Source of the DNA: Candidatus Nanopusillus sp.
GTDB taxonomy: Archaea; Nanobdellota; Nanobdellia; Nanobdellales; Nanobdellaceae
Direction of reading: 5' to 3'
Length of the DNA: 32,000 nucleotides
Assembly: GCA_049414405.1 (NCBI GenBank)
Contig: JBMSAQ010000008.1
Span: 25,505-57,504, forward strand
In this document: piece by piece, positions 3,508 to 29,354 of the stretch
Layout: every line of letters starts with the position of its first letter
Position numbering within the stretch: position 1 is the stretch's first letter
Translations under genes and position numbers: made by a program
The notes under the pieces: model-generated
The model's database searches: none
The model's input: only the letters and a program-made list of their open reading frames with translations
What the model was told of the DNA's origin: nothing

Positions 3508-4171
3508 ATTTACTAGAACTGAAGGTTTAATATTTTTTAATAAAATTTTAGTTATTTCTGATTTACATATAGGGATTGAAAAAGAATTGTATAAAAAAGG
3601 GATAAATATACCATCTCAGGTGAATTATTATATAAATAAAATAAGGAAAATATATGAAAAACATAATTTAAAATATTTGATTATTGATGGGGATTTAAAA
3701 CATAATGTACCTGAAACGAGTTTACAAGAGATTTTTGATATCCCTTATTTTATAAATGAAATTTCCCAATATTTCAAGAAAATATATATAATAAAGGGAA
3801 ATCATGATGGTGATATTGAAGATTTAATTACTGGGATAAATAATGTTAAAATTTTAAAGGCATTAAAGATAAAAAATGTTGTATTTACTCATGGACATTT
3901 AAATACAAAATTAAAGGGGAAATATTATGTTATTGGACATCATCATTTTGCAAAAATTATATCTACAAGTATTGGAGAAAGTATATATGAAAAGGTTTTT
4001 ATAATTGGATATAAAGGTAATAAAGTAATTATAATTTTACCTGCATTTTCTGATTTGGCTGGATTATGGGATGTTGGAGAATTTCAAGGTCCGATTGCAA
4101 AGGGAATAGAAAAATATGAAGTATACACATTGGATGGAATATTAATTGAGGAAAAAGAAATTAAAAATTAG
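3500..4171 (+). CDS. Calcineurin-like metallophosphoesterase (archaeal SbcD/Mre11-related small phosphoesterase type)
   Basis: Ordered metallophosphoesterase motifs: ISDLHIG, IIDGDLKH, KGNHD, FTHGH, IGHHH. It overlaps rpl35ae by 8 nt. An SD-like aaggag sits 11 nt upstream of the ATG. Confidence 0.7.
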   Translation: MLKFTRTEGLIFFNKILVISDLHIGIEKELYKKGINIPSQVNYYINKIRKIYEKHNLKYLIIDGDLKHNVPETSLQEIFDIPYFINEISQYFKKIYIIKGNHDGDIEDLITGINNVKILKALKIKNVVFTHGHLNTKLKGKYYVIGHHHFAKIISTSIGESIYEKVFIIGYKGNKVIIILPAFSDLAGLWDVGEFQGPIAKGIEKYEVYTLDGILIEEKEIKN

Positions 4172-4185
4172 GGTTTAATATTCTT

Positions 4186-4815
4186 TTATCTCCCTCTGAC
4201 AATTTTATTTTCTTCATTAATTATCTTTTCTTCTTCTTTTATATACTTTTTTAACTTATTTATCATGTTTTTTTCTTCATTAATTAATTTTTTTAATTTT
4301 TTTAAATCTCTAATTATAGCTTCATTTTTAATCTCTTTCTCTAAGTTCTCTAATAGTCGATGTTTTTCATTATAAATATGGGCAATTTCATTAAGAATTC
4401 TGTTTTCTTGGGCATGTTTTTCTGCTGCAGCTAATATTTCTGATTTTATTTTTTCAAGTTCATGTTTTTTAAATGATAAACCTTTTTGCTCGGCTCTATG
4501 TATTTCTTCATTGTAAGCGTTTAATACTTTTTCTAATGATCTTATTTCATTTGCTATATGTACACGTAAGCTATAGAGTATGTTGGCTTCCTTATCTATA
4601 TTTGCTGAAAGTTCACAAAATTTTCTACCCAATTCATTACCTAAAAGATTATGATAAGCTTGATTATGACAATAACTTCTTATATATTTTTGTCTTTCTA
4701 AATTATTTTGTAATTTTGTTAAAATTGCAAAAAGTTCTTTTCTTTCATTTCTTATTTTTTTATTTAAATTTTTTAATGTGTTCTTAGCTCTATTAAGGAA
4801 GTTCTTGAGTACCAT
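4186..4815 (-). CDS. Hypothetical all-helical coiled-coil protein (209 aa)
   Basis: Long ORF with its own TATA-like box (rc tttataat centred ~26 nt upstream of the ATG at 4815). Heptad-like K/E/L/N/I composition throughout. No recognisable catalytic motif. Confidence 0.55.
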   Translation of the reverse strand: MVLKNFLNRAKNTLKNLNKKIRNERKELFAILTKLQNNLERQKYIRSYCHNQAYHNLLGNELGRKFCELSANIDKEANILYSLRVHIANEIRSLEKVLNAYNEEIHRAEQKGLSFKKHELEKIKSEILAAAEKHAQENRILNEIAHIYNEKHRLLENLEKEIKNEAIIRDLKKLKKLINEEKNMINKLKKYIKEEEKIINEENKIVRGR

Positions 4816-4939
4816 ATTTTAGTAGGAGATCTTGGAAATTATAAATTTTTATATAGGAAGATTTTATTTACTTATCTAAACTATTTTTAAATAAGTTAAA
4901 TCACGATTTATAAAATAATAATTAGATATATACATATCT

Positions 4940-6088
4940 ATGAAGTATAATTTAAATAAAGAGATAGAAGAATTGTTCTTTGAAAGATTTAAGGATTTTA
5001 ATCCAATTCAAAAAATAGCAATTCCTGAAATATTAAATGGAAATAATACTTTAATTATTGCCCCCACAGGATCTGGAAAAACAGAAGCTGCAATATTACC
5101 TGTATTCTCAAAAATATTAGAATTAAAGGAAAAAGGAATTGAAAACCAATTATTGGGGATTTATATAACACCATTAAGGGCATTGAATAGAGATATATTG
5201 GATAGAATAAAATGGTGGTGTGATAATTTGGGTATATCTGTTGCAATTAGACACGGAGATACAGAAGAAAAAGAGAGGGTAAGATTATCTAGAAAACCTG
5301 TAGAATTTTTGATAACGACTCCAGAAACTTTTCAAGTATTATTTTTAGGAAAAAGATTAAGAGAACAGTTGAAAACGGTAAAATATGTTATTATAGATGA
5401 ATTACATGAATTATTAAATGAAAAAAGAGGAATACAATTATCTTTAGGTTTAGAAAGATTGGTAAATTATGCTGGAGAATTTCAGAGGATTGCGTTATCT
5501 GCAACAATAGGTGATTTAGATGAAGCTTCAAAATTTATTTTTGGATATAGGAATTATAAAGTTGCATATTGGTATGCGGAGAAAAAATATCATATAGAAG
5601 TATATTATCCAAAAATTAGTGAAGAAGATTTGGAATTGGCAAGGAAATATAATTGGAATCCAAAAATAGCATGGAGTTTAAGGAAAATTAAAGAAATATT
5701 AGATAAACATAGATCTGTAATAATATTTGTAAATACAAGAGAAATGGCGGAATTATTATCTTCAAGATTCAAGGTTTGGCTACCTGAATATAAAATTGAA
5801 ATACATCATAGTTCTTTATCAAGAGAAGTAAGAGAAAGAAACGAAAGATTATTTAAGGAAGGTAAAATTAAAGCAATTATTGCAACATCTTCTTTAGAAC
5901 TTGGTATAGATATTGGATATGTTGATGCTGTTATTCAATATAATTCGCCTAGACAAGTTACAAGATTGATACAAAGGATTGGAAGGGCTGGTCATAAATT
6001 ACATGAAGTATCCATTGGATATATAATTACAACAGATGTGGATGATTATGCAGAGAGTTTAGCGATTAAAAAATTTGTTTTAGAATAA
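4940..6088 (+). CDS. Lhr-like superfamily-2 DEAD/DEAH helicase, two-RecA-domain core only (382 aa)
   Basis: Motifs seen: Q (FNPIQKIAI), I (APTGSGKT), Ia (YITPLRALNRD), Ib (TTPE), II (DELHELLNEKRGIQLSLGLERL, Lhr-style), III (SAT), VI (QRIGRAGH). The ORF ends ~30 aa after motif VI. Confidence 0.75.
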   Translation: MKYNLNKEIEELFFERFKDFNPIQKIAIPEILNGNNTLIIAPTGSGKTEAAILPVFSKILELKEKGIENQLLGIYITPLRALNRDILDRIKWWCDNLGISVAIRHGDTEEKERVRLSRKPVEFLITTPETFQVLFLGKRLREQLKTVKYVIIDELHELLNEKRGIQLSLGLERLVNYAGEFQRIALSATIGDLDEASKFIFGYRNYKVAYWYAEKKYHIEVYYPKISEEDLELARKYNWNPKIAWSLRKIKEILDKHRSVIIFVNTREMAELLSSRFKVWLPEYKIEIHHSSLSREVRERNERLFKEGKIKAIIATSSLELGIDIGYVDAVIQYNSPRQVTRLIQRIGRAGHKLHEVSIGYIITTDVDDYAESLAIKKFVLE

Positions 6089-6113
6089 AGTTATATTAAA
6101 AAGGTATAAAATT

Positions 6114-7871
6114 TTAGGACCAGCGATAATGGAAGGACCATTGATGGGGGAAATTCTGCCCTTGCCTGCATTTATCGGAGATTTTCGTTTGATAATTTTC
6201 TATATATTTTTCTAATTTTTTTCTTAAGAGTGGGTATATAGGACTGCCTCTAGAATATTGACTAAAAAAAGAATTTATATCGCGCATAATTTTATTATAA
6301 ATGTCATAAAATTTCCTACAATTTTCTGGGACATTTTCATTACACTCAATATTACTAGATATATTTTCAAGATCTTTAATATCATCCTTAATTAAAGATA
6401 TGAAGTTGCTAAAGCTCTCTAATCCATCAGCGAGTTCATTATAACGCCCATAAATTTTCTGGAATTCTTCTAGAGAGGCATCTACCATACTTTTAAGTCG
6501 ATTGTATGCATCGGGCATGGAATTACGTAATTTAGAGAGTTTACTTTCAGCCTCTCGATATTTTTTGTCAAATTTTTCTTTATGATTTTTCATTTTACTC
6601 TTAATATTTTTAACCCCATCTTTTAGCTTGTTATCCATTATATCTGAAATATTTAAATTTTTAATAGTATTTTCGAAATTTTCAAGGTCTGTTTGGGCGC
6701 CTTTTATATGTCCTTTCAATTCTTTAATTATATCTTTTTCGACATTTTCTTTGAGCCACCTACTTAATATTCTTTTTAAATCTTCATTTTGTAAGTATCT
6801 ATGTGTATATACAGTATCAACTTCTCGTTTTATATTGTCTATCTTTTCTTCTGTTTCTTTTAAAATCCCCAATATCTTTGATCTTATTGGCTCATTATAC
6901 TGTCGTTCTATAAGCCTATATAAATTATTAAATTTTTCTTTGATCATATTATACTCTAAGATAAAATTCTTATAATTATCTTTAATTTCTCTTGACAGAT
7001 TAATTAGGTCTTGTACATTTCCTTTATCTAATTTCTTACTCATCTTTAAATTATTTAGTAAACTATTTATTTTATGAACCTTACTTATAATACCAAAATT
7101 TTCATCTTTTGCCACCTTTTCAAATAAATCGATTATTTTTTTGGCCTCTTCTTGAATTTCTCTAGGCACTTCTTGAATTTCTTGTGGTTTTTTTGATCCT
7201 TTTATGATATGATAAAGGCTATCAAGATCTTTTTTTATTTTGTTGATATATTGTGAGAATTCTTTATGTACTCTAATACCAAGAATAAATAATATAATAA
7301 AAAGTATAAATAAGATGATAAAATAAGCCGTTGAAGATAAAAATTCTTTAAGACTATCATTAACCAATATGACAAATAGAAAAACAATAGCAACAACAAA
7401 TCCTATAATACTTCCTGTAATACCATGAAAGAATTTATACGATCCAACAATTATTAATATAATTGTAAAAATAATGGCAAGTACAATAATTACAGAATGA
7501 AAAAATACTGTAGCAAGAAAAGCCATAATGAGATAAAGTAGAAGTAAAGGTCTACTTATTTCTATGTTAGCCCCGTTCTTCTTGGCTTCATGTGTTAAAA
7601 AGAAAAGTACTAAAAAAACAAATAGAAAAGGAATTGCATAATTTATAAAGTAATAAATAAATTTATCTATGTTTTGTTTTATTATCTCTGAAAATGATGC
7701 AGTATTTGTAGAATGGGTAGAAGAAGGTATAAGATTAGATAATTGTTGGTTGGCTTGAGAAACAATCTGACTTAAATCTACTGTAGTTTGAGCATAAACG
7801 TTTATACTTCCTAATAGGATTAAAGTTAATAAAATTAGTAAGTATCTAATATAATTGTTAATTTTCTTCAT
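6114..7871 (-). CDS. Membrane-anchored coiled-coil protein: signal peptide, ~5 TM helices, ~370-aa helical C-terminal domain
   Basis: N-terminus MKKINNYIRYLLILLTLILLGSINVYA/QTT looks like a signal peptide. Hydrophobic segments span aa ~75-200. The remainder is K/E/N/I-rich and helical. A TATA-like box lies at 7891..7904. The last ~20 codons (CRQGQNFPHQWSFHYRWS) overlap a GC-rich island and are compositionally atypical. Confidence 0.6.
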   Translation of the reverse strand: MKKINNYIRYLLILLTLILLGSINVYAQTTVDLSQIVSQANQQLSNLIPSSTHSTNTASFSEIIKQNIDKFIYYFINYAIPFLFVFLVLFFLTHEAKKNGANIEISRPLLLLYLIMAFLATVFFHSVIIVLAIIFTIILIIVGSYKFFHGITGSIIGFVVAIVFLFVILVNDSLKEFLSSTAYFIILFILFIILFILGIRVHKEFSQYINKIKKDLDSLYHIIKGSKKPQEIQEVPREIQEEAKKIIDLFEKVAKDENFGIISKVHKINSLLNNLKMSKKLDKGNVQDLINLSREIKDNYKNFILEYNMIKEKFNNLYRLIERQYNEPIRSKILGILKETEEKIDNIKREVDTVYTHRYLQNEDLKRILSRWLKENVEKDIIKELKGHIKGAQTDLENFENTIKNLNISDIMDNKLKDGVKNIKSKMKNHKEKFDKKYREAESKLSKLRNSMPDAYNRLKSMVDASLEEFQKIYGRYNELADGLESFSNFISLIKDDIKDLENISSNIECNENVPENCRKFYDIYNKIMRDINSFFSQYSRGSPIYPLLRKKLEKYIENYQTKISDKCRQGQNFPHQWSFHYRWS

Positions 7872-7890
7872 TTTACGTTTATAGTATTTT

Positions 7891-7904
7891 GGAATTTATA
7901 AAAG
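7891..7904 (-). promoter_or_regulatory. TATA-like box for the 6114..7871 gene
   Basis: The minus strand reads cttttataaattcc, centred ~27 nt upstream of the ATG at 7871. The same tttataaat-type motif recurs at the same distance before other genes in the window. Confidence 0.45.
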
Positions 7905-8147
7905 TTGTTTCTCCAGAATAGTAAATATATCCATAACGATTATTTATGAGAACTTAGCCTATATTATAACTTATATTTTTCAGCATTTTATTGTTGTTAT
8001 TATATAAAAATTACTGAAGTATCTCACAAATTAAATTGATAATATTTATATTCTAAAAATTTTTTAAAGTATGTTTTTCTCCATTAATTATCTAGAAGTG
8101 AAAATTTATCCAATGCAAAAAATTATGGTATTCTTTCTAAAATATCA

Positions 8148-8157
8148 CTTATAAATT
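8148..8157 (+). promoter_or_regulatory. TATA-like box for the 8179 gene
   Basis: cttataaatt centred ~26 nt upstream of the ATG at 8179. Confidence 0.45.
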
Positions 8158-8178
8158 ACAAAGTACTACTTAAATAAA

Positions 8179-8949
8179 ATGGTTTATAAAGTTGTTGTAG
8201 ATTTGATTAAAGCAGCAGAAAAGCATTTAGAAAATGTAGAAAGAATAGAACTTGATTTAGCTGGGAGGAGAGTACTTGGAAATCCCGAAATATCTAGAGA
8301 AATATCTAGAGAAATTGGAGAAGTCAAAAAATATGTACAATTGATAAAAAATATTGATAAAGAATTTAATGAAATAGACAAAAAATTCAAAGAGATAATG
8401 GGAGGATGTACCAATAAATATCATAAATTATTGGAAGAATTAAAAAGAAATAGATTAGAAAATACGGATTTATATAGAAGGGTTAAGAAGATTCATGATA
8501 TATGCGAATTTCTACATAAGAATGGATTAGGTTCTGATAAATTATTTTATGAAGGAGTTTCTATCATATCTAGTGAATCAACTAACATAAAAAGAGAAAT
8601 AGGGAGTATAATAACAAGTGGAAAACTTAATAGATATGTAATAAATAAGAATTTAATAGATGACATTAAGAAAATATTTGGAGAAATAAATACAGAAGTA
8701 AGTAAAAACCTTGAGATACAAGTAACAAATAAAATTGTAGAAATTGATAATAATATAAAGAATTTAATAGATAGAATCAAGAAAATATATGGTCATATAA
8801 AGAATTATGAAAATATATATAAGAATATAGCAAAAGCTGAGAAAGATTTACATGAAGAAATCGTAAAATTAGAGAAATTACATGGAGAGATTAGACCTTT
8901 AGGTGCAGCATTGGCTAATCTTGAAAAGTATATAGCTTTAAGACATTAA
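8179..8949 (+). CDS. Hypothetical coiled-coil protein (256 aa), probable paralog of 9009..9722
   Basis: Helical K/E/I/N-rich ORF with its own TATA-like box. The segments FKEIMGGCTNKYHKLLEEL and ICEFLHKNGLGSD line up with FDGIMNDFNSHYRTFVDRI and ITYITSHGIHSVD in the next ORF. Confidence 0.55.
   Translation: MVYKVVVDLIKAAEKHLENVERIELDLAGRRVLGNPEISREISREIGEVKKYVQLIKNIDKEFNEIDKKFKEIMGGCTNKYHKLLEELKRNRLENTDLYRRVKKIHDICEFLHKNGLGSDKLFYEGVSIISSESTNIKREIGSIITSGKLNRYVINKNLIDDIKKIFGEINTEVSKNLEIQVTNKIVEIDNNIKNLIDRIKKIYGHIKNYENIYKNIAKAEKDLHEEIVKLEKLHGEIRPLGAALANLEKYIALRH
8288..8311 (+). repeat. In-frame 12-nt tandem repeat (gaaatatctaga x2, plus a partial third copy)
   Basis: Direct reading: gaaatatctaga gaaatatctaga gaaatt, encoding EISR-EISR-EI inside the 8179 ORF. 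Confidence 0.85.
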
Positions 8950-8970
8950 AGTATATAGCTTTAAGACATT
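8925..8970 (+). repeat. Perfect 23-bp tandem duplication spanning the stop codon of the 8179..8949 ORF
   Basis: aaagtatatagctttaagacatt occurs at 8925..8947 and is repeated exactly at 8948..8970. The stop codon taa (8947..8949) is created at the junction. Confidence 0.9.
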
Positions 8971-8976
8971 TCTTAC

Positions 8977-8987
8977 ATTTATAAATT
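8977..8987 (+). promoter_or_regulatory. TATA-like box for the 9009 gene
   Basis: atttataaatt centred ~27 nt upstream of the ATG at 9009. Confidence 0.45.
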
Positions 8988-9008
8988 TTGAAAATTTTTA
9001 TTTAAATT

Positions 9009-9722
9009 ATGACAATTTCATCAAGTGTGGGAATGCCACCTAATTTAATATGCAAATCATTTATTAATAAGTTAAATCTACTCGGTAATACTATAAGGGA
9101 ACGTTTTGACAAAAATATAGATATTAAATATCAAAAAAATATAAAAAGGACGGTAGAGAAAATTGAAAAAATTAAAAGAGAAATAGAAGAAATTCAAAAA
9201 ATTTTCGATGGAATAATGAACGATTTTAACTCTCATTATCGTACATTTGTTGATAGAATAGTTAAAGAATTAAATAGCGCACATATAAAAAGTAATTTAC
9301 CACAATATTTAAGCGAACTTGGTAATACTATTACATATATAACAAGTCATGGTATACATTCAGTTGATGAGATTAAAAAGAAAAAAAAGGAGATAAAAGA
9401 AATAAAGAAAAAAATTAATGAAGAAATAAATTCGAAGGGCATGAATTTACATCGTCTTCTCTTGATTGCTAATGAATATGATAATATATTTCAAAATCTT
9501 ATAGGTATAAAACTAAGATCAAAAGTTCTGAGTAGAATGATGAATATAAAAAATGAATTAGATAATTTGAAAAAGGAAATTAAAAATATAAATGTTAAGA
9601 ATAAAAATAATATGAAAAAAGAAATAGAAAAGGAAATAAATGAATTAATAAAAGAACTGAAAATGTCAATTAAATTTTTAGAAGAGTTTATAAAATATAT
9701 ATCCCATATATTAAAGGTATAA
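9009..9722 (+). CDS. Hypothetical coiled-coil protein (237 aa), probable paralog of 8179..8949
   Basis: Same helical composition and shared local motifs with the preceding ORF. It has its own TATA-like box. Confidence 0.55.
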   Translation: MTISSSVGMPPNLICKSFINKLNLLGNTIRERFDKNIDIKYQKNIKRTVEKIEKIKREIEEIQKIFDGIMNDFNSHYRTFVDRIVKELNSAHIKSNLPQYLSELGNTITYITSHGIHSVDEIKKKKKEIKEIKKKINEEINSKGMNLHRLLLIANEYDNIFQNLIGIKLRSKVLSRMMNIKNELDNLKKEIKNINVKNKNNMKKEIEKEINELIKELKMSIKFLEEFIKYISHILKV

Positions 9723-12216: not shown

Positions 12217-12864
12217 TTATTTTCTACTTTTCGTGAATTCTGGTAACTCATATAGAGCTTCTGCAGGTGCTATGAAGAAGTATTTCTTCTTACGTTTTTT
12301 CTTTGGAGGTTCATCCTTTTTATATACCCAATATAGAGCTGCAAGTACAAATCCTCCTATTATGAGGTATGGAAGTAAACCACTAAATATCAATGCAACC
12401 ATTATTTCTGTCATTATATTTTGAGCAGCGGTTCCAAATCCTTCAAAATCTACTGAAGATGCATATAGAAATGCAAATAAAACAGTAAGAGTTAGAAGGC
12501 CGACAATAACATTATGAGAAGATTGTTTATATTTCTGAAATTCATCATCTCCCCCATATGGTTCTGATATACCAGCCATTAATGCAATAATCATTAAAAT
12601 GAAAAATATGATAAGTATTTCAAAAAAGAAGAATGATATAAAGTATGAAGTAAATATAACATCAGATATGCTATATAGATAGTAGAATGCTATTACTATA
12701 GAAATTATTGCATACAATTTCTCTTTACTAGGATTATCTCTTCCAAACAAACCAATTTTTCTAAGAGATCCATATAATAATGAAAATACTAATAAAAATG
12801 GTGCTACAATCGTAAATATACCATATTGTGAAAATAAAGCATAAATAAATGATGACGACTCCAT
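12217..12864 (-). CDS. Uncharacterised polytopic membrane protein, tandem paralog 3 of 3
   Basis: N-terminal motif FSQYGIFTIVAPFLLVFSLLYGSL is shared with the two upstream ORFs. About 5 hydrophobic helices. Basic C-terminal tail KKDEPPKKKRKKK. Confidence 0.6.
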   Translation of the reverse strand: MESSSFIYALFSQYGIFTIVAPFLLVFSLLYGSLRKIGLFGRDNPSKEKLYAIISIVIAFYYLYSISDVIFTSYFISFFFFEILIIFFILMIIALMAGISEPYGGDDEFQKYKQSSHNVIVGLLTLTVLFAFLYASSVDFEGFGTAAQNIMTEIMVALIFSGLLPYLIIGGFVLAALYWVYKKDEPPKKKRKKKYFFIAPAEALYELPEFTKSRK

Positions 12865-12869
12865 TTTAT

Positions 12870-13469
12870 TTACTTTGATGATGCTGAGCCTCCGCTCGAT
12901 CCGCTTTTCTTATCCCCACCAACTACCCACATTATTACTAAGAATACAAGTCCAAATACAACTAATAATGCCAACATACCGGATTGCATAAGATAGTCAA
13001 GTATTTGAAGTAATAAGGATATCAATGGTAATGATGATGAAGATGACCCTGAAATACTTAAAGAATTCATGGCTAGCCATAATATTATTCCTACAACAAG
13101 AAATGCAAAAAATGCCCTTAATCCTCCTGGTATCTTTTTATTTGTAAATGCCAAAGCAATAGCCAGTAGAGAAAATCCAATTATAACTAAAGTAGCCTTA
13201 GGAATAAAAGATAATAACCATATTATCAAATCCTGATTATATATTGATAAAAGGGCAAATCCAAGAGAAAATAAAGCACTTAATTTTCTACCTACAGTAT
13301 CATCAGGACTTGCTTTTAATAAATTGGACAATTCTAATAACATGAATACCAAAGAAAATATTAATAAAAATGGTAAAACAAAATTTATAATTCCATATTG
13401 TGATAGTAACTGGTTAAAATTTCCCTGAACAAAACCTATTTGTGATGATAGTTGATTTAAGTCTGTCAT
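12870..13469 (-). CDS. Uncharacterised polytopic membrane protein, tandem paralog 2 of 3
   Basis: Motif LSQYGIINFVLPFLLIFSLVFMLL. About 5 hydrophobic helices. Ser-run loop (GSSSSSLP) and G/S/K-rich tail. Overlaps paralog 1 by 4 nt. Confidence 0.6.
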   Translation of the reverse strand: MTDLNQLSSQIGFVQGNFNQLLSQYGIINFVLPFLLIFSLVFMLLELSNLLKASPDDTVGRKLSALFSLGFALLSIYNQDLIIWLLSFIPKATLVIIGFSLLAIALAFTNKKIPGGLRAFFAFLVVGIILWLAMNSLSISGSSSSSLPLISLLLQILDYLMQSGMLALLVVFGLVFLVIMWVVGGDKKSGSSGGSASSK

Positions 13470-14041
13470 TTTGATTTTGGAGGTTCTGATTTTTGGCCTT
13501 TTTCAGGTTTCACAGCCCAATATGCTATTCCAAACATTATCGCAAGAACTGCTAAAGTTTCTATAAATGGTTGTAATGAAGAAAGTACCGGAGATGTTAG
13601 TGCAGAATTAATATAATTATACAATCCAAGTATAAATATCACCATTAATGTAAATATAATTATAGAAGATGCTAATAAAACCATCCTTGCCCTATTACCT
13701 ATTTGTACTTCTCCACTCTTTTCTTCTCTCTGTAAAAATGGAGAAATTGCTAATATAAGGAAAAATACTGTTAATAAAAATAACACTAAATATGGGATTA
13801 AGGTTTTTAATGATAATACTACATTTGCAGATCCAACTATAAAAAATCCTGTAGATGCAGATATGATTGATATTAAACTCCTTGCAACCTTTCCTTTATC
13901 CCCTTCAGCAAAAGGATCACCTAATATTTTATATTTACTTAATATACCATACATTATAGCATAAACTAGCAAAAATGGTAATATAACATTAAAGAATCCC
14001 AGGTTGTTCAATAATGTTAAGAATGTATCATAAAATGCCAT
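13466..14041 (-). CDS. Uncharacterised polytopic membrane protein, tandem paralog 1 of 3
   Basis: Motif LNNLGFFNVILPFLLVYAIMYGIL. About 5 hydrophobic helices. Charged tail KPEKGQKSEPPKSK. Starts 26 nt downstream of the ferredoxin pair. Confidence 0.6.
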   Translation of the reverse strand: MAFYDTFLTLLNNLGFFNVILPFLLVYAIMYGILSKYKILGDPFAEGDKGKVARSLISIISASTGFFIVGSANVVLSLKTLIPYLVLFLLTVFFLILAISPFLQREEKSGEVQIGNRARMVLLASSIIIFTLMVIFILGLYNYINSALTSPVLSSLQPFIETLAVLAIMFGIAYWAVKPEKGQKSEPPKSK

Positions 14042-19384: not shown

Positions 19385-19975
19385 TTATTTAGATATGGGA
19401 ACTACTGGAAGGACTGGAGGTCTAGAAACTATTAGTTGATATATTAGACCGTATAGGTATTCTCTGGGTAGTAATTGATAAATTATGTTACAGTTATTTT
19501 CCGAATAACAATAAACATTATTATCATATAAAAATATATCATTGTTTGCAATTATTATTGGATGGGTTATGTTTATATGATATGTCATATTAAAACATGA
19601 ATATTCAGGACATTTTACCATTGGACATATTCCTTCAGGTGTACATGATACATTACAAGGATACCAAATGAAGGGACATTTCTCTACTGTTACGCTATAA
19701 TGAACCGTCTGATTACAAAATATAAATGAAGTAGTATTAACATATTCTACTAATGGTACTATGTAATTTATGCCTGGCCCTATATTTTTTATTATGAAAT
19801 ATCCGTCTGTAACATTATACAAATAACATCCATCCCCATATAGACTTAATGAATATAATTGCAAATTTATTTTTTCTAATTTATAGTTAACAGTAGATTT
19901 ATCACTTATTGATACTATTATGATAAAGATAATCAATGAAAGTATTCCAACAATAAACTTTGTGTTTAATTTCAT
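19385..19975 (-). CDS. Secreted or membrane-anchored cysteine-rich protein (196 aa)
   Basis: N-terminal anchor/signal KFIVGILSLIIFIIIVSI. Cys-dense core (CPFIWYPCNVSCTPEGICPMVKCPEYSC). Several N-x-S/T sequons. Its own TATA-like box lies upstream. It is 13 nt upstream of the PP-loop gene on the same strand. Confidence 0.5.
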   Translation of the reverse strand: MKLNTKFIVGILSLIIFIIIVSISDKSTVNYKLEKINLQLYSLSLYGDGCYLYNVTDGYFIIKNIGPGINYIVPLVEYVNTTSFIFCNQTVHYSVTVEKCPFIWYPCNVSCTPEGICPMVKCPEYSCFNMTYHINITHPIIIANNDIFLYDNNVYCYSENNCNIIYQLLPREYLYGLIYQLIVSRPPVLPVVPISK

Positions 19976-22380: not shown

Positions 22381-22551
22381 ATGGGAAATAAAATTGGTGA
22401 ATGTAAATATTGCAATAGACCAGTATATGATAATGAAAAATATAAGATAATAAATTTTAATGGGGAAAAGATGATTTTTCATATATCTTGTTTTAGAAAA
22501 TTAAAAAAAGAAGCGATTGATTTAGTGAAGAAAGGATTTGTTAATTTCTAA
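22381..22551 (+). CDS. Small (56 aa) putative zinc-binding protein, below the ORF-track length cutoff
   Basis: Reads atgggaaataaaattggtgaatgtaaatattgc...; translation MGNKIGECKYCNRPVYDNEKYKIINFNGEKMIFHISCFRKLKKEAIDLVKKGFVNF has CxxC...HxxC spacing. TATA-like tttttatataataaa lies ~24 nt upstream. Its stop overlaps the stop of the convergent 22548 gene. Confidence 0.45.
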   Translation: MGNKIGECKYCNRPVYDNEKYKIINFNGEKMIFHISCFRKLKKEAIDLVKKGFVNF

Positions 22552-23381
22552 ATCTTTGGTTGATATATGTGTATCATATATAGATATGTAATATATGAAA
22601 ATGGAATAATTACAATAAAGAAAAACAATAATGAGTTTAAAATATTTACATTTCCAGATGCAATTGAAAACAGGAATGCTAAAATTAATAATATCATTGG
22701 AAATGTTATAAAGAAAAATGCATACAAAGTTATCCACAAATTGACTTTTTCATTATATTCCTTTAGTTGTATTTCGTATTCTTCTAAATTTTGTTTTGCA
22801 TATATTCTAGCAAAATCCTTTAGAGAACCTCCAGATCTAATTACTGATATCAACCCATATAAGAATTCTTTGAATTTTTCTGAAGGTGTTTTTCGAGCCA
22901 ATTCCAATAATGCAGATAAAATATCATATCCAAAATTGTCAATTAATATTAATAAATATGAAATTTCTTTATTTATTGCTCCAAATCTTTTTTCTCTATT
23001 TAATAATTTGAATATATTTATTATATTCATTTGAGAACCTGAATATGAATAAAAGTATAATGCAAAAAATGGTAAATTATCTTCTATATCTTTTATATAA
23101 TCTGCTTTTGCTAATGTTGGATAAATATAAAAATAAATAAATGTTAGAAAACCAACAATAATTCCAAATAAAATACTTACAGAAAATAGTACTATATCAT
23201 AGAAATTTAGGTAAAAGATAAACATCAAAGATAAAGATATAAAGGATAAAACAAATGTTAGGAAGGAATATTTTAATGTTGCTTTTACGTAATCTTCAAT
23301 AGAAGTTTTAAATTGTGTATAAAATATATCATATTTTTTATCCTTAAAATATGGATATAATTTTTTTACTAAAAAGTTCAT
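22548..23381 (-). CDS. Type IV filament platform membrane protein (T2SSF/FlaJ/TadC family), single-domain 277-aa form
   Basis: One cytoplasmic T2SSF-like helical domain (LPFFALYFYSYSGSQMNIINIFKLL...GYDILSALLELARKTPSEKFKEFLYGLISVIRSGGSLKDFARIY) flanked by TM helices. Overlaps the upstream ATPase gene by 4 nt. Confidence 0.7.
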   Translation of the reverse strand: MNFLVKKLYPYFKDKKYDIFYTQFKTSIEDYVKATLKYSFLTFVLSFISLSLMFIFYLNFYDIVLFSVSILFGIIVGFLTFIYFYIYPTLAKADYIKDIEDNLPFFALYFYSYSGSQMNIINIFKLLNREKRFGAINKEISYLLILIDNFGYDILSALLELARKTPSEKFKEFLYGLISVIRSGGSLKDFARIYAKQNLEEYEIQLKEYNEKVNLWITLYAFFFITFPMILLILAFLFSIASGNVNILNSLLFFFIVIIPFSYITYLYMIHIYQPKI

Positions 23382-24925
23382 ATTTTCTTCAATAAGGAGT
23401 CTTTATCTGTATAATATAGCTTTATATATTCAGCAATTTTCTTATTTTCTCTCATATTCTTTTTTACTAAATAATCTATTACTTGTTTTTTCTCTTCTAT
23501 CGAATCTTTAAAACTTATATTTGATCCAACTCTATATTTTAATGTCTCTTCAGTATACTTCCCCAAATCTCTTTTTTCAAATGTATCATCTTCAAAATTC
23601 CATTTTATAACCGTTTCATTTTCAACCTTTCTATTCAAATATTTTCCTACTTCAACAATCTCTCTTATTCTCCTAGCGGAGGGGGAAATGTTTCTTGCCC
23701 TCATTGTAAATATTACTACATCTAATAATGCAACATGGTCTGGAGTTAAATTAATTGGTGGTGTTGTTAATCTTCTTATTAATGTTCTCCAGCTATCAGT
23801 ATGTACGGTTGATAGTGCAGAATGACCAGAAGCCATTCCTTGGAACATTACATATGTCTCTTCCCCCCTTACTTCTCCAACAATTACATAATCTGGATTT
23901 TGTCTAAAAGATTCTGATAATAGTTTATACATATCAATTTCTCCATAGTATTTATCTCCAACAAAGAAACCTTTTCTTGTTGTCGCGGGAATCCAGTTTT
24001 CATGATACAATTGTAATTCTCTTGTATCTTCAATGGATATCACCTTTGCTTCTGGTGGTATGAATTGTACAATTGAATTTAATAATGTTGTTTTTCCAGA
24101 AGATGTTGAACCAGCAATTAATATGTTCGCTCTAAATTCTACTAAGGTCCATAAATATGCGGCAGTTTCAGAATCTAACACATTTAATTTTATTAAATCT
24201 ACTAATGATAGCATTTGCTTTTTGAATTTTCTTATTGTAAATGTTGGACCATGCGTAGTAATTTCTTGCGAATATGTTGCATTTACCCTCGATCCATCAG
24301 GTAATGTTGCATCTAAAATTGGCTCCGCATATGATATATGTTTTCCAGCCTTTTGCGCTAACTTTACTATAAATCTATCCAATTCATCTCTCGATAAAAT
24401 TATGTTTGTCTTTAATATTCCAAATTTATTATGGTGTACGTATATTGGTATATCATATCCATCGCATGAAATATCTTCAATAAATATGTCATAAAATAAT
24501 GGGTGAATTTTTTCATATCCCAACATATCTCTCCATAAATAATAATAATATTTTATGAATAAATCTTTATCTATTTTTATCTTATACTTATTTACAAATT
24601 CTTCTAATTTTTTTATTAATACATATTCTTTATTCTTATTTAGAAATTCTTCAGGATTTTTATACATTTCATCTAAAATATATTGTTTTACCTTTTCTAT
24701 TAATATCATTTCTTCATCTGATATTTCTGGCTCTAATAATTCATATATAAGTTCTTCGGATACATTATCATAATAAATATGTGCATATGCTAGTTTTCCA
24801 ATTAACGGATAAATTATATCAATTTGCGATTTATCGATATCAAATTTTATGTCTGGTATAAAAGATTCTTTTTTTATTTCGTTATTAAAATATTTTAGTA
24901 TATCTTCGGCAATAATTTTTTTCAT
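23378..24925 (-). CDS. Type IV filament/secretion ATPase of the FlaI/ArlI-PilB-VirB11 family
   Basis: Walker A AGSTSSGKTTLLN, Asp box ISIEDTRELQL, Walker B/Glu PDYVIVGEVRGEE, His box GHSALSTVHT. The long N-terminal domain is typical of archaeal FlaI-like ATPases. Confidence 0.85.
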   Translation of the reverse strand: MKKIIAEDILKYFNNEIKKESFIPDIKFDIDKSQIDIIYPLIGKLAYAHIYYDNVSEELIYELLEPEISDEEMILIEKVKQYILDEMYKNPEEFLNKNKEYVLIKKLEEFVNKYKIKIDKDLFIKYYYYLWRDMLGYEKIHPLFYDIFIEDISCDGYDIPIYVHHNKFGILKTNIILSRDELDRFIVKLAQKAGKHISYAEPILDATLPDGSRVNATYSQEITTHGPTFTIRKFKKQMLSLVDLIKLNVLDSETAAYLWTLVEFRANILIAGSTSSGKTTLLNSIVQFIPPEAKVISIEDTRELQLYHENWIPATTRKGFFVGDKYYGEIDMYKLLSESFRQNPDYVIVGEVRGEETYVMFQGMASGHSALSTVHTDSWRTLIRRLTTPPINLTPDHVALLDVVIFTMRARNISPSARRIREIVEVGKYLNRKVENETVIKWNFEDDTFEKRDLGKYTEETLKYRVGSNISFKDSIEEKKQVIDYLVKKNMRENKKIAEYIKLYYTDKDSLLKKI

Positions 24926-24940
24926 ATAATTTTAACATAT

Positions 24941-25180
24941 TTATGAATTTTTAATTATTATAGTACCAACTAAATAGTGATAACCTTGATAATATAACAA
25001 ATTTGATTGGTTATTTAATTTTGCATCTTCTAATATTAAATTATATATTTGGTTTTTTATTAATGAATTTTTATAATTCAAATTATTTAGATAGTTATAA
25101 TAGAATATTAGAGAACTTGATATAAATAATAAAACTAAAAAAATAAACAATACTTGCTCTAACAATAATTGTGTTTTCAT
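24941..25180 (-). CDS. Small pilin-like protein (79 aa) with an N-terminal hydrophobic helix
   Basis: MKTQLLLEQVLFIFLVLLFISSSLIFYY has a short basic N-terminus, a Glu near the start of a ~20-aa hydrophobic helix, and a small N-rich globular part. It lies between the other pilin-like gene (4-nt overlap) and the ATPase (15-nt gap). There is no canonical [KR]-[GA] cleavage motif. Confidence 0.35.
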   Translation of the reverse strand: MKTQLLLEQVLFIFLVLLFISSSLIFYYNYLNNLNYKNSLIKNQIYNLILEDAKLNNQSNLLYYQGYHYLVGTIIIKNS

Positions 25181-25695
25181 TTTATTATTGAATAAATAAA
25201 TGTTTTATTTTTAACTATGTTTAAATTGCAGTTTCCATAGCAAACCCCTGTACAATTATTTGTCAATATTATTAATGATAAATAATTCTCAAAACACCCA
25301 TACAATGTAATATTATTTTTATTTTCTAATAAATAATATCCATTTATCTTTGGATCATACACATAATAATTTCCATACGAATATATTAGATCTCCTTGAT
25401 ATGTTAGATTATTTAATGTTGTTTTACAGAAATTGCTAGATTTAATTAATGTTAAATTATTTAAGCAATATATGTTGTATCCATCTAAATTAAAATTTAT
25501 ATTAAAATATAAACTATCTTGCAAATTACTTAATACATTTTCTATATATTTTGAATCATATTGAAATTTATTTTGATTATAGAAATTTATTGCATATATT
25601 TTATTATTATTCCACCATGTAAAAACAAAATAAAATGTGAATACTGATAATAGGATTATTAAAATATATTCAATGTAAATATGTATTGATTTCAT
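25177..25695 (-). CDS. Pilin-like secreted protein (172 aa) with an N-terminal hydrophobic helix and a Cys/Asn/Tyr-rich glycosylatable domain
   Basis: MKSIHIYIEYILIILLSVFTFYFVFTWW, then a beta-type domain with several N-x-S/T sequons and paired cysteines (NNCTGVCYGNC). It is the first gene of the filament operon. Confidence 0.4.
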   Translation of the reverse strand: MKSIHIYIEYILIILLSVFTFYFVFTWWNNNKIYAINFYNQNKFQYDSKYIENVLSNLQDSLYFNINFNLDGYNIYCLNNLTLIKSSNFCKTTLNNLTYQGDLIYSYGNYYVYDPKINGYYLLENKNNITLYGCFENYLSLIILTNNCTGVCYGNCNLNIVKNKTFIYSIIK

Positions 25696-25710
25696 AAAAA
25701 TATATTAACT

Positions 25711-27039
25711 TTATATATTAAATATTTTTCTCTGATAATCTTCTAAGAAAAATATGTCTTCTCCTAAGGTATATCCATAATCTGATACAATATTATAATA
25801 TGATGCCTTTTTATTTATATCTCCGTGATTTGGTATTATATATTCTGGATTTAGCATTTTTATTAACATTATATGATCTTGGCTTTTTGCATGACCTGAT
25901 ACATGTACATCTTTTATTATTTCTGCTTTTCTTCTTTTTAATCTTTCTTCTAATATTTTTCTATTTGCTTCATTTATTGGATGTGGGATTACATTATTTG
26001 CAAATATTACTGTTGTATTACTTAGAACAAAATTATATTCTCCTCTTGCTATTCTATCTAAAACAGAACCAGGTTCCCCCTGATGTCCGGTAACAATTAA
26101 TAAATACTCTTCTTTATTCTTTTCAACTTTTTCTAAAACTTTTTTATAATCTCTGGCGTCAAAATATACTTCCGCCTCTTGAGAAAAATTATATAAATTA
26201 ATATTTTCTGCTGCATTAATATATTTTCCCAAACTTCTTCCAAGAAATATAGGTTTTCTATTTATCTCTTTTGATAATTCAACTATTAATTTTAATCTTG
26301 CAATATGTGATGAAAATGTTGTTATAATTACTCCCTTTGTATCTATTGAAGTTAATACATCATATAACATATATCTTTCAATAATTTCTGATTGGGATTT
26401 TGAATTTTCATCTGCTCTTGTCGTTTCGGGAATTAATAATAAAACTCCTTCCTTTCCAATTTTCTTTAATTTTTCTTTATCAGGTTTTTTACCAATAACT
26501 GGAAAATTATTAAATTTAAAATCACCAGAAAATATTATATGACCCTTATTTGTTTGAATATCAATCATTAATGATTGTGGAATTGAATGAGTAATATTAA
26601 TAAAATTAATTAAAATATTCTCTGAAATTTTAATTGAAGAATTTGGGGATATTTTCTTTAAATCATTTGGTAAAACAATTCCATATTCTTTTTCTTGTTG
26701 TTTTATTAATTCAATTGTATATGGAGATGCATAAATTGGTGCATTGTATTTTGGTGCAATAAAGTTTACAGCACCTATATGATCTAAATGCCCATGCGTT
26801 AATATTATTGCCTTTACTTTGTCCCTATATTTTTCTAAAATTGAATCATCTGGTATTATATCTAAATCATATAATTCTTTTAATGGTTTATTTATTATAT
26901 CTTCTCTTTCTCCAAATTGAGATATTTTATCTACATTTATTCCAATATCTATTATAATTATTTTATCATCAATTCTTATTGCACTCATATTTTTTCCTAT
27001 ATATGAATATCCACCTATTGGAAAAATTTCAATTTCCAT
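25711..27039 (-). CDS. rnj: Archaeal RNase J (metallo-beta-lactamase / beta-CASP ribonuclease)
   Basis: N-terminal IFPIGGYSYIGKNMSAIRIDDKIIIIDIG (RNase J GG..eIGkN signature), HxHxDH motif ILTHGHLDHIGA, beta-CASP C-terminal HVSGHAKSQDH. At 442 aa it lacks the KH domains of aCPSF1. Confidence 0.75.
   Translation of the reverse strand: MEIEIFPIGGYSYIGKNMSAIRIDDKIIIIDIGINVDKISQFGEREDIINKPLKELYDLDIIPDDSILEKYRDKVKAIILTHGHLDHIGAVNFIAPKYNAPIYASPYTIELIKQQEKEYGIVLPNDLKKISPNSSIKISENILINFINITHSIPQSLMIDIQTNKGHIIFSGDFKFNNFPVIGKKPDKEKLKKIGKEGVLLLIPETTRADENSKSQSEIIERYMLYDVLTSIDTKGVIITTFSSHIARLKLIVELSKEINRKPIFLGRSLGKYINAAENINLYNFSQEAEVYFDARDYKKVLEKVEKNKEEYLLIVTGHQGEPGSVLDRIARGEYNFVLSNTTVIFANNVIPHPINEANRKILEERLKRRKAEIIKDVHVSGHAKSQDHIMLIKMLNPEYIIPNHGDINKKASYYNIVSDYGYTLGEDIFFLEDYQRKIFNI
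25712..25725 (-). promoter_or_regulatory. TATA-like box for the pilin-ATPase-platform operon, overlapping the 3' end of the RNase J gene
   Basis: The minus strand reads atatttaatataaa, centred ~24 nt upstream of the ATG at 25695. Confidence 0.4.
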
Positions 27040-27122: not shown

Positions 27123-29354
27123 ATGAAATTATTGAGGATATTGATATTTGGATTAATAATTATTTTAATATCTTTTTTGAACAATGTTTATTCTCTAAGT
27201 GGATGGTTATATTATAGACCAATTTTAATAAATAATACGCAGAATTCAAATAACCTGATAGACTATCAAATATTGGTGACTTTAGATACACGAACCCTAA
27301 TATCGCAAGGTAAAATGAGATCTGATTGTGGTGATATAAGATTTACAGATTCTGATTTTACTACATTATTAAATTATTGGATAGAACCAAATACTTGTAA
27401 TACGGCCAATACAAGAATATGGGTAAAAATTTCATTTATACCCAGGAGTTCTACTAAAACAATATATTTATGGTATGGAAATCCAAGTGCAACTAGTATA
27501 AGCAATCCTTATAATACACTTCTTTTATATGAAGATTGGTCATCTGGAAGTTTAGCTGGATGGTCTAAATATGGTTGTGCAGGATATTCTGGAAGTATAG
27601 ATTATAATGATGGTAATCCACCCCCTTCATTGATAATAAGTGGTAATGATTATAATTGTGATGTGTTTTATTATAAAGTAATAAATAAGCCTGTTGGGGT
27701 AGGATTAAGGATAATTGCAGATAATAAAGGATATCATGGGTATTACACTTTTAACCCTCCAAAAAAATATTACGTATGTAATACTTTGGGAAATTGTGAG
27801 GGGGTTGGGGTTGGAGGTCCAAATGATGTTTGGACATATAACGATCAACGTATTTTTAATTCAGCCTTTGTACAAAGTTTATCTACTGTTTGGGTTGGTT
27901 TTGGTTTAGATGATGTTTGGATTGCTGATTGGAACCAATATGCAAAATTCGATAATATAAGAGTAATGCTTTATACCCATCCAGAACCTTCTGTAATTGT
28001 TGGATCTGAACATACGGCAGTTATTATATCTTCAATTCGAATAAATCCATCAAGTTCTCCTTTAATTTGTCGGGGTACTCGAACATCAGCGACAGTAACT
28101 GCTAACTTAAATAATCCAAATAATATTTCTACAATAGTTTCTTTTTCATGTTCAGCACCTTCTGGTATTACATGTTCAGTTTCTCCTTCTTCATGTACTA
28201 CTAGTGGATCTTCTTGTTCAACAACATTGTATGTAAATTCTTCTCTAACAATACCCCCAGGTTCATATTCAGTAACAGTAACAGCTTCAATTTTAGGATC
28301 TTCAGCATCAGCAACATATACATACAATATAGGTCCTAATATTTCAATTTCTAGTCAATCAAGTTCAAACTTTCAAAGTTCTTATAATATTTATATAACT
28401 GGTTGTGCTCAAAATTATACATTATATGTAAATAATTCTCCGTATTGTTATGGTTTATATTCACAATTTCAAAATATAAATGCTTTATGTGTTGTTTCAT
28501 ATCCTGGAAGTTATTCTGTATATGCGCAGGGATGTTATGGTGGAACTTGTGTTAATTCAAATACAATTAATTTAAATATACCTGCATCAGGAATAACAGT
28601 TCCAATTATAGGTATTAATGTCTTAAATATAACAAGTCAAAACATATATGTAACAATTTCAGTAAACGGATCAAATCAAAATATACAATCAATAAATGTA
28701 TATTATAATAACAATAATGTATATTCAAATAGCAATGTAAATACAAATTATTATTCATTTAATTTGCAATTACCATATTCAAATAATGGAAACATAACAG
28801 TATGTTCTACATTAACAAATGGACAATCTGGTTGTGTAACACAAATATTTAGTGTAAATGTAGCTCAAACATATATTTATTATGGAATAATTCAATTGCA
28901 AGCAAAAGTTCAACCAATTAATATAAATACTACATATGGACCAATTGGAAATAGATTTGAATTTAGTATAGACCATCCAGGATATATTTTAACATTAAAT
29001 ATAACAAATGTAGGAAATATGACATTAAATAATATTACAATAAATTTACAACAACTAGGAAATGTACTAGAAATATTATATAACGGAATTCCAATAAGAT
29101 TATTAAATAATATAAATATAGATCAGTTACAACCAAATCAATCATATATATTACAATTTAGCGTTTTACCATTATACATGGGATCTTCTTCATTATTATT
29201 AAACTTTAATGTAAATGGGCAAAATATCGGAAATGCTCAGTATAATTTAATTGTAAAAGGACCTTCAAATAAGTCTTCATTAATTGTATCAGAAAGTATT
29301 AATTATATATTAATATTGTTAGGAATAATTGGATTAATAATATTTTTAATATAG
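27123..29354 (+). CDS. Large secreted surface glycoprotein with an N-terminal DUF2341-like domain, Ig/CARDB-like modules and a C-terminal TM anchor
   Basis: Signal peptide MKLLRILIFGLIIILISFLNNVYS. WLYYRPILINNTQ...LIDYQILVTLD...CGDIRFTD...LLNYWIE...TRIWVKISFIP...KTIYLWYGNPSA matches the DUF2341 pattern as I recall it. A possible concanavalin/LamG-like region follows. About 15 N-x-S/T sequons by my count. C-terminal anchor NYILILLGIIGLIIFLI. Confidence 0.6.
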   Translation: MKLLRILIFGLIIILISFLNNVYSLSGWLYYRPILINNTQNSNNLIDYQILVTLDTRTLISQGKMRSDCGDIRFTDSDFTTLLNYWIEPNTCNTANTRIWVKISFIPRSSTKTIYLWYGNPSATSISNPYNTLLLYEDWSSGSLAGWSKYGCAGYSGSIDYNDGNPPPSLIISGNDYNCDVFYYKVINKPVGVGLRIIADNKGYHGYYTFNPPKKYYVCNTLGNCEGVGVGGPNDVWTYNDQRIFNSAFVQSLSTVWVGFGLDDVWIADWNQYAKFDNIRVMLYTHPEPSVIVGSEHTAVIISSIRINPSSSPLICRGTRTSATVTANLNNPNNISTIVSFSCSAPSGITCSVSPSSCTTSGSSCSTTLYVNSSLTIPPGSYSVTVTASILGSSASATYTYNIGPNISISSQSSSNFQSSYNIYITGCAQNYTLYVNNSPYCYGLYSQFQNINALCVVSYPGSYSVYAQGCYGGTCVNSNTINLNIPASGITVPIIGINVLNITSQNIYVTISVNGSNQNIQSINVYYNNNNVYSNSNVNTNYYSFNLQLPYSNNGNITVCSTLTNGQSGCVTQIFSVNVAQTYIYYGIIQLQAKVQPININTTYGPIGNRFEFSIDHPGYILTLNITNVGNMTLNNITINLQQLGNVLEILYNGIPIRLLNNINIDQLQPNQSYILQFSVLPLYMGSSSLLLNFNVNGQNIGNAQYNLIVKGPSNKSSLIVSESINYILILLGIIGLIIFLI

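Follow-up and report, generated by a model that had tools for sequence, protein, structure and literature searches.

What kind of machine is encoded by a compact four-gene locus of Candidatus Nanopusillus sp., and does it build a surface filament out of the two small proteins whose genes lead it? The answer bears on how nanoarchaeal and other DPANN ectosymbionts attach to and tap their hosts. The locus lies on the minus strand of a 32,000-nt stretch of contig JBMSAQ010000008.1 (assembly GCA_049414405.1), the whole of which was analysed and is called the window here. A sequence-only reading of this DNA had described a minimal operon resembling those for type IV filaments (TFF), with an ATPase, a half-size platform protein and two non-canonical pilin candidates (p172 and p79). 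The TFF-like nature of the module was borne out by a T2SSE-family ATPase, a T2SSF-family platform and two small proteins with class III-like N-termini. We consider it moderately probable that the locus is a self-contained TFF assembly module of the Clade 2 type, with p79 and p172 as its substrates, and that it is one of three such modules in Nanopusillus-like nanoarchaea.

A conserved four-gene module

Open reading frame (ORF) calls across the window gave four tightly packed minus-strand genes in the order p172, p79, ATPase and platform, reproducing exactly the coordinates and junctions reported in the sequence-only reading (4-nt overlaps or a 15-nt gap). The features are as follows.

25696..25725, minus strand: upstream A/T-rich region with the TATA-like element TTTAATATATAA; a possible promoter, from a reading of the sequence
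25177..25695, minus strand: p172, pilin-like protein of 172 aa (ORF call and orthology)
24941..25180, minus strand: p79, short pilin-like protein of 79 aa (ORF call and orthology)
23378..24925, minus strand: secretion/assembly ATPase of the PilB/FlaI/GspE family, 515 aa (ORF call and Pfam T2SSE)
22548..23381, minus strand: platform protein (plat277), 277 aa, N-terminal half of a split T2SSF platform (single PF00482 domain)

ATGA overlaps link p172 to p79 and the ATPase to the platform, while 15 nt separate p79 from the ATPase gene. At the distal end, the platform stop codon overlaps by 4 nt a convergent gene for a 56-aa Zn-ribbon protein, beyond which lies the gene for elongation factor 2 (EF-2), so that there is no room downstream for a second platform half. 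The TATA-like element proposed upstream of the module is present at 25725-25712, 17-30 nt before the p172 ATG, a spacing that is, as weak evidence, compatible with a leaderless transcript. It falls, however, within the final codons and the stop codon of RNase J, the gene upstream, and carries little weight because the local DNA is ~80% A+T. Scans of the window for tRNAs and Rfam families returned no matches.

Exact-sequence look-ups equated the locus, in the order p172, p79, ATPase and platform, with Nst1_262/261/260/259 of Nanobsidianus stetteri Nst1 and with Nps_03090/03095/03100/03105 of N. acidilobi 7A; the orthologous module in Nanobdella aerobiophila is MJ1_0697-0700. An identical four-gene order was found in >15 nanoarchaeal genomes or contigs with differing flanking genes, and in all nanoarchaeal loci sampled the p172 and p79 genes directly precede the ATPase gene, whatever the flanks. 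Both gene order and gene lengths are kept across lineages down to 42-57% identity. The upstream neighbour is RNase J in Nanopusillaceae (in Nanobdella the gap between RNase J and the module is 58 nt), a tRNA synthetase in locus L027 and a MacB/FtsX permease in locus L115; the module is therefore not tied to RNase J. Locus L027, from a divergent nanoarchaeal lineage (GC 31%) in which RNase J is not adjacent, carries an additional 125-aa protein before the module (4146-4523), with ~4 transmembrane (TM) segments and no family match.

In ungapped comparisons with four Nanopusillus strains, the ratio of nonsynonymous to synonymous substitution rates (dN/dS) was 0.05-0.16 across all four genes, with 0.09-0.13 for p172 and 0.07-0.16 for p79; the value for the ATPase against L011 was an indel artefact and was disregarded. 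All four module genes are under strong purifying selection.

The ATPase is distinct from the archaellum motor

The ATPase matched Pfam T2SSE with 124 bits and retains intact Walker A (GSTSSGKT), Asp box (EDTRE), Walker B (DYVIVGE) and His box (GHSALSTVH) motifs. Its best solved relative is GspE2 of A. fulgidus (afGspE2; 2OAP) with 359 bits, against 242 bits for S. acidocaldarius FlaI (4II7) and 143 bits for CpaF, and it did not reach the cut-off of 550 bits for the NCBIfam FlaI equivalog NF058587 (350.8 bits). Sequence identity is 96-91% to orthologues in Candidatus Nanopusillus metagenome-assembled genomes, Nst1 and N. acidilobi 7A (93% for Nst1_260), 78% in Nanoarchaeota archaeon YN1 and about 71% in Nanobdella aerobiophila. 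The protein falls in arCOG01817, not in the CpaF/TadA-type arCOG01819, and its N. acidilobi orthologue Nps_03100 was likewise annotated as arCOG01817 and detected in the proteome of that organism (Wurch 2016).

Earlier surveys had already come across this gene. Podar 2013 listed Nst1_260 among 'paralogs of FlaI' outside the archaellum set, and three Nst1 ATPases stand in Clade 2 of Makarova 2016 (Table S2 and tree). One of these, gi 490715424, which is labelled Clade_2 and is sister to Nst1_227 in that tree, probably corresponds to Nst1_260, to judge from consistent gi offsets. With this mapping of gi numbers to locus tags, the ATPase is placed, through its Nst1 orthologue, in Clade 2 of the archaeal type IV pilus (T4P) systems.

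Could the ATPase and platform nevertheless be the archaellum pair ArlI and ArlJ, the remaining arl genes being scattered? The top NCBIfam match of the ATPase is indeed FlaI (351 bits), JGI pipelines name the two genes FlaI and FlaJ, and dispersal of the arl genes is known from nanoarchaea. The archaellum also shares with the module its ATPase and platform superfamilies and the ATP-driven assembly of subunits that carry class III signals. Yet N. acidilobi encodes an archaellum at other loci, with ArlI (Nps_00925) adjoined by FlaH and FlaD/E (Nps_00930 and Nps_00940), a FlaJ with 10 TM segments (Nps_02340; 549 aa in Nst1) and archaellins (Nps_01995/02010). By comparison, the module lacks ArlH, ArlF, ArlG, ArlC/D/E and ArlX, its platform is half-size and its ATPase scores below the FlaI cut-off. 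Pfam searches of the window found no linked gene for ArlH, ArlF/ArlG, ArlC/D/E, ArlX or a two-domain ArlJ of ~550 aa. The statement of the sequence-only reading that archaellum accessory genes and a prepilin peptidase are missing from the window thus held in both Pfam searches and a screen for GxGD motifs with TM segments, and no second T2SSF gene was found there either. Against its caution that ATPase and platform might cluster with archaellum operons whose other genes lie elsewhere stand the Clade 2 placement of the ATPase and the true arl genes at other loci. Given in addition the sub-cut-off FlaI score and the higher score of afGspE2, the archaellum explanation was rejected, and we regard it as effectively excluded. 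On these comparisons of sequence and gene content, the ATPase is not the archaellum motor and the module is separate from the archaellum.

The platform is a lone N-terminal half

The platform protein contains one PF00482 T2SSF domain (residues 106-234; 55.5 bits against a cut-off of 25.2) and four TM-like segments, at 36-61, 62-91, 213-249 and 250-273. In NCBIfam alignments it matches only the N-terminal half of UpsF (12-253 of 484) and of ArlJ (4-248 of 555). The single domain and the half size reported in the sequence-only reading were therefore both confirmed, by Pfam and by the NCBIfam alignments respectively. The N. acidilobi orthologue Nps_03105 had been annotated as 'Flp pilus assembly protein TadC' (arCOG01808, 6 TM; Wurch 2016).

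More distant relatives of the locus, with 43-47% ATPase identity and belonging to Aenigmatarchaeota and unclassified archaea, carry the ATPase followed by two tandem T2SSF genes for proteins of ~280-295 aa. Hidden Markov models (HMMs) were built from the first (A-type) and second (B-type) of these tandem genes, which correspond in NCBIfam alignments to the N-terminal and C-terminal halves of ArlJ/UpsF, respectively. The platform scored 113 bits on the A-type HMM and had no match to the B-type HMM. Among 80 metagenomic loci found through the B-type, the A-type accompanied the B-type in all 36 that were informative. By contrast, a lone N-terminal half stands at the module locus in every nanoarchaeal genome sampled, with orthologues all 277-293 aa long; a lone half was also seen in two Aenigmatarchaeota loci (L016 and L019).

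Gene fission of the platform has been described for the Epd and Tad systems, where TadC is the N-terminal half and TadB the C-terminal half, and one half has been lost in some actinobacterial Tad systems (Denise 2019; PMC6668835). As judged from the alignments, the platform protein represents the N-terminal half left by such a fission, and its solitary state is an exception among its relatives. The earlier suggestion that a half-size platform is unusual consequently needs to be divided: the size is the norm for the clade, as in Epd and Tad, and what is unusual is the presence of only one half.

These observations also define how the module relates to known systems. With the euryarchaeal-type Clade 2 T4P modules of Makarova, Koonin & Albers 2016, whose archetype ATPase is afGspE2, it shares the arCOG01817 ATPase and the adjacency of ATPase and TadC genes; related loci often have two tadC genes, whereas the module locus has only one half-platform gene. 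With the Epd pili of Methanococcus maripaludis (EpdJ/EpdK) and the bacterial Tad/Flp pili (TadB/TadC), it shares a single-T2SSF fission platform and, in p79, a short, head-less pilin candidate. Those systems, however, use an ATPase of the CpaF/TadA type, which the module does not, and the module locus contains neither an EppA-type peptidase nor TadZ. Moreover, both platform halves are essential in M. maripaludis, whereas only the N-terminal half is linked in the module, and the residue before the cleavage site is not a fixed Gly.

Paralogous modules in the same organism

A paralogous module was found ~9 kb beyond window coordinate 1 (L031 1252-4988, corresponding to Nst1_227-229 and Nps_03250-03260). 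It encodes a 497-aa ATPase (47% identical to that of the module), a 459-aa A-type platform protein that is extended at its N-terminus by a coiled coil of ~180 aa, and a B-type protein of 274 aa. The ATPase scores 365 bits on the FlaI equivalog, similar to the module ATPase. This second module thus has the same ATPase family and an A-type half, and differs in possessing a B-type half, in the divergent transcription of its platform genes from the ATPase gene, and in the absence of p172 and p79 genes: motif and gene inspection of L031 revealed no p172- or p79-like genes near it. The gene for ribosomal protein S19 adjoins.

The published gene table of N. acidilobi contains six arCOG01808 genes and three such ATPases, next to a separate archaellum. 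The arCOG01808 genes are distributed as follows.

Nps_03250/03255: a pair, beside the ATPase gene Nps_03260
Nps_01915/01920: a pair, detached from an ATPase gene
Nps_03105: single, in the module locus
Nps_02675: orphan

The description of the locus as a stripped-down, minimal and sole apparatus was accordingly overstated, since a paralogous module with both halves exists and N. acidilobi has five further half-size TadC genes. The ratio of two arCOG01808 genes to each ATPase suggests that the missing C-terminal half may be supplied in trans. Most likely it would come from a dispersed TadC-type gene, for which the orphan Nps_02675 is a candidate; alternatively, the N-terminal half may homo-oligomerise. 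A protein search for paralogues of the platform returned only its orthologues, and a metagenome scan with the B-type alignment, aimed at the orphan TadC Nps_02675, gave matches from other DPANN lineages only.

Two pilin-like proteins with a relaxed -1 position

We defined an N-terminal motif as M-[KR]-x, followed by four or five uncharged residues, Glu, and then at least 16 uncharged hydrophobic residues. This motif occurred at 2 of the 198 candidate starts in the window, namely those of p172 and p79, and at none in 30 shuffled windows. In p172 (MKSIHIYIEY...) a three-residue basic leader, MKS, is followed by a conserved hydrophobic helix, IHIYIEYIL, and the rest of the protein, in which six Cys are invariant and five N-glycosylation sequons occur, includes a predicted beta domain rich in Cys. 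An AlphaFold2 (AF2) model with a predicted local distance difference test (pLDDT) score of 76 has helices at 2-30 and 41-57 and then an all-beta domain, a predicted layout that is pilin-like. In p79 (MKTQLLLEQ...) the leader MKT precedes QLLLEQ and a hydrophobic helix; its AF2 model (pLDDT 80, with a less confident C-terminus) consists of one helix, 2-78, with no globular head.

Orthologues of p172 are Nst1_262, Nps_03090 and MJ1_0697, and those of p79 include Nst1_261 and Nps_03095; in the N. acidilobi annotation Nps_03090 and Nps_03095 were both given as 'uncharacterized, 1 TM', with no arCOG (Wurch 2016). An exhaustive HMMER search of 1.84 billion proteins yielded only 11 representatives of the p172 family, all nanoarchaeal-type and 164-172 aa long. 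N-termini of the p172 family have the form M[KR]x↓[IQMV]xxx[IVL]EY[IL]L (arrow, expected cleavage position), and those of the p79 family the form M[KR]x↓Q(L/I)L(L/A)E.

The Ser and Thr that had been noted at the -1 position in place of Gly or Ala were correctly read (S in p172, T in p79), and departures of this kind proved general across Nanoarchaeota. In both proteins the +1 residue and the Glu are conserved while -1 varies, with S, T, N, V, F and I occurring beside G and A. Across 14 sequences of p172, the -1 residue was S in 6, T in 2, G in 2, and A, N, F and I in 1 each. For p79, Nanopusillus has T or N at this position, L115 has S and L027 has V; YN1, KM4331-16 and Nanobdella have G and read M[RK]G↓Q(L/I)..E, where the window copy has T. 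Since a canonical [KR]G or [KR]A cleavage site is present in several orthologues of the small proteins, the ancestral state at -1 looks canonical and the Ser/Thr derived. The alignments thus indicate that this position is no longer constrained to Gly/Ala in Nanoarchaeota.

The form G↓Q...E(+5) of the p79 orthologues follows the EppA/DUF361-type class III signal, which has Gln at +1 and an acidic residue at +5 (PMC4187195, PMC2910488), although p79 has no match to Pfam Class_IIIsignal. Epd and Tad pilins are alike in this respect, with Gln at +1 and an acidic residue at +5 or +6 (compare RG↓Q...E in p79 orthologues). In contrast to other Clade 2 T4P loci, no PilA/Pilin_N pilin and no arCOG02911 minor pilin were detected in the module, and the candidate subunits are tiny nanoarchaeon-specific families. 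Three of the distant relatives (L014, L015 and L018) carry pilins starting KG↓ISPL with weak Pilin_N matches. The first 24 residues of p172 align to those of a family of ~194 aa (KG↓QS..EY) from DPANN split-platform loci (hhalign E 2e-4, probability 46%), in which -1 is G or A in 18/18. Searches of the distant split-platform loci for remote homologues of p172 and p79 gave similarity in the N-terminal helix only.

The ~194-aa family is itself worth recording. It has 21 members in the fetched loci, begins M.KG↓QS..(I/V)EY, belongs to no Pfam family and is encoded ~1 kb downstream of the B-type gene in L057, L071, L077, L093, L018 and others.

A relaxed -1 position implies either that a peptidase of relaxed specificity would do the processing or that processing would be dispensable, the latter perhaps because the leader is only three residues long; PibD is able to process leaders of 3-4 residues. 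No class III/A24 peptidase was found in the window or in ~400 kb of related sequence that was fetched, using Pfam and the GxGD and TM screen. In the published annotation tables the peptidase (arCOG02298 or 'peptidase A24') is listed only for the crenarchaeal hosts, as Acd1_0111 and SE86_03235. Nst1 and N. acidilobi both encode archaellins, and these organisms make archaella; the absent annotation could reflect a divergent, unannotated enzyme. Of the leads that emerge from the locus, the most interesting is the missing peptidase annotation combined with the relaxed -1 position.

The degenerate -1 position and the missing B-type half might also be taken as signs of decay, that is, of a non-functional remnant of a two-half system that has lost its C-terminal half and its peptidase site. 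Such decay is hard to reconcile with the strong purifying selection on all four genes, with the gene order and lengths still kept at 42-57% identity, and with an ATPase whose motifs are intact and whose protein is detected in the proteome. We regard a remnant as very improbable, to the point of being effectively excluded.

What the module may assemble

If p79 and p172 are the substrates of a Clade 2-type machine, both would be inserted into the membrane via their N-terminal hydrophobic helices. A hexameric ATPase docked on the T2SSF platform would then lift them out into a surface fibre or a short pseudopilus. By analogy with the short pilins of Epd and Tad, we infer that p79, which is short and head-less, is the likelier bulk subunit; p172, glycosylated and disulfide-rich, would be the likelier minor or tip subunit in contact with the host.

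Several observations weigh against this assignment. The p172, p79 and platform proteins are absent from the detected N. acidilobi proteome, small membrane proteins being hard to detect, and no filament has been tied to the module locus. The known specificity of A24 prepilin peptidases does not extend to -1 residues such as F, I, V, N and T, and the published annotation tables of Nst1 and N. acidilobi list no arCOG02298, 'prepilin' or 'A24' gene. Sequence-profile searches of p172 and p79 against the PDB and Pfam were negative, including for Pilin_N. When the models were compared with the PDB by Foldseek, p172 matched nothing significantly (its best E, 0.14, was to generic Ig-like folds) and p79 had no matches, and the globular domain of p172 has no detectable homology outside Nanoarchaeota. 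The description of the two as pilin candidates stands as regards their class III-like N-termini, which the motif and the canonical orthologues bear out, while the pilin fold found no confirmation in the fold search.

Some of the same observations would fit an arrangement in which the pilins handled by the ATPase and platform come from genes elsewhere in the genome. In that case p172 and p79 would be uncleaved, membrane-anchored accessory proteins that anchor or prime the machine, as do the unprocessed archaellin-like proteins ArlF/ArlG. The unconstrained -1 position, the lack of an annotated peptidase and the fold searches without confirmation are all in keeping with this, as is the presence of other archaellin-like proteins elsewhere in Nanobdella, and Makarova 2016 argued that ATPase/TadC modules often use pilins encoded in trans. 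On the other hand, the genes for p172 and p79 keep strict co-linearity and translational coupling with the ATPase gene in every lineage, and the conserved intramembrane Glu and +1 Gln, with a canonical G/A persisting in several lineages, fit genuine class III substrates. We consider this arrangement unlikely, if the most credible of the alternatives.

The module also raises two questions about TFF machines in general. Is a single platform half sufficient, or does it pair in trans? And can class III subunits be assembled without the Gly/Ala rule, perhaps without a canonical prepilin peptidase? The ATPase/TadC pair is already known at the level of annotation and has been discussed as T4P components (Podar 2013, Makarova 2016, Jarett 2018); Jarett 2018 described Nanoarchaeota with two T4P systems plus an archaellum and with several FlaJ/TadC homologues. 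The lone half-platform together with two pilin-like proteins bearing a degenerate cleavage site is unusual and has not been described before. The module offers two candidate subunits that had neither family nor function in earlier censuses (Nst1_261/262, Nps_03090/03095, MJ1_0697/0698).

Besides archaella, electron cryo-tomography of Nanobdella has revealed a second appendage, 15 nm in size, and an attachment organelle whose 7-nm tube extends into the host, their protein composition not being established (PMC11104419). A link between the module and these appendages or the attachment organelle is speculation. A bolder form of it holds that Nanoarchaeota have re-engineered the TFF pathway altogether, with subunits that have three-residue leaders and escape canonical A24 cleavage, with a platform made of the N-terminal half only, and with the 15-nm 'second appendage' or the 7-nm attachment-organelle tube of Nanobdella as the product. 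We judge this combination quite improbable.

Neighbouring genes and surface proteins

Large, variable surface proteins flank the module. In the window, a 743-aa DUF2341 surface protein (27123-29354, plus strand) is Cys/Ser/Thr-rich and carries a signal peptide as well as an anchor at its C-terminus; it differs greatly from strain to strain, giving only partial matches at 77-84%, and is represented by three ORFs in N. acidilobi (Nps_03070-03080). In Nanobdella, the pectin-lyase-like MJ1_0701 lies directly downstream of the module.

This setting would suit a short pseudopilus or bindosome-like device that forms no long fibre and instead exports or displays surface proteins, such as the neighbouring large glycoproteins, at the site of host contact. 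TFF machines of the T2SS and Bas types do work as export or display devices. The flanking genes are not, however, conserved with the module, and it has no linked substrate-binding or secreted protein bearing a class III signal. A display device of this kind accordingly seems improbable.

The Cys-rich 196-aa protein at 19385-19975 (minus strand) had been put forward as a possible further subunit on account of its N-terminus and composition. This was rejected: profile-profile comparison with p172 gave an hhalign probability of 0.3%, and the N-terminal motif is absent. It is a sequon-rich surface protein, separated from the module by the EF-2 gene. It is also fast-evolving, with 31-93% identity where EF-2 stays at 88-98%, and is a candidate host-interaction surface protein.

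Further from the module, Lys/Glu-rich proteins predicted to form coiled coils are encoded at 4186-4815, 8179-8949 and 9009-9722, and between them a 585-aa protein (6114-7871) combines a signal at its N-terminus with several TM segments and a long coiled coil; no member of this cluster (4186-9722) received a significant family assignment. Three tandem paralogous membrane proteins of ~190-215 aa with 5 TM segments are encoded at 12217-14041 (minus strand), their orthologues Nps_03160-03170 being annotated as 'uncharacterized membrane protein'. The first of the three (13466-14041) matches almost the whole of the PF18895 T4SS_pilin profile at a sub-threshold score (21.5 bits against a cut-off of 26.6).

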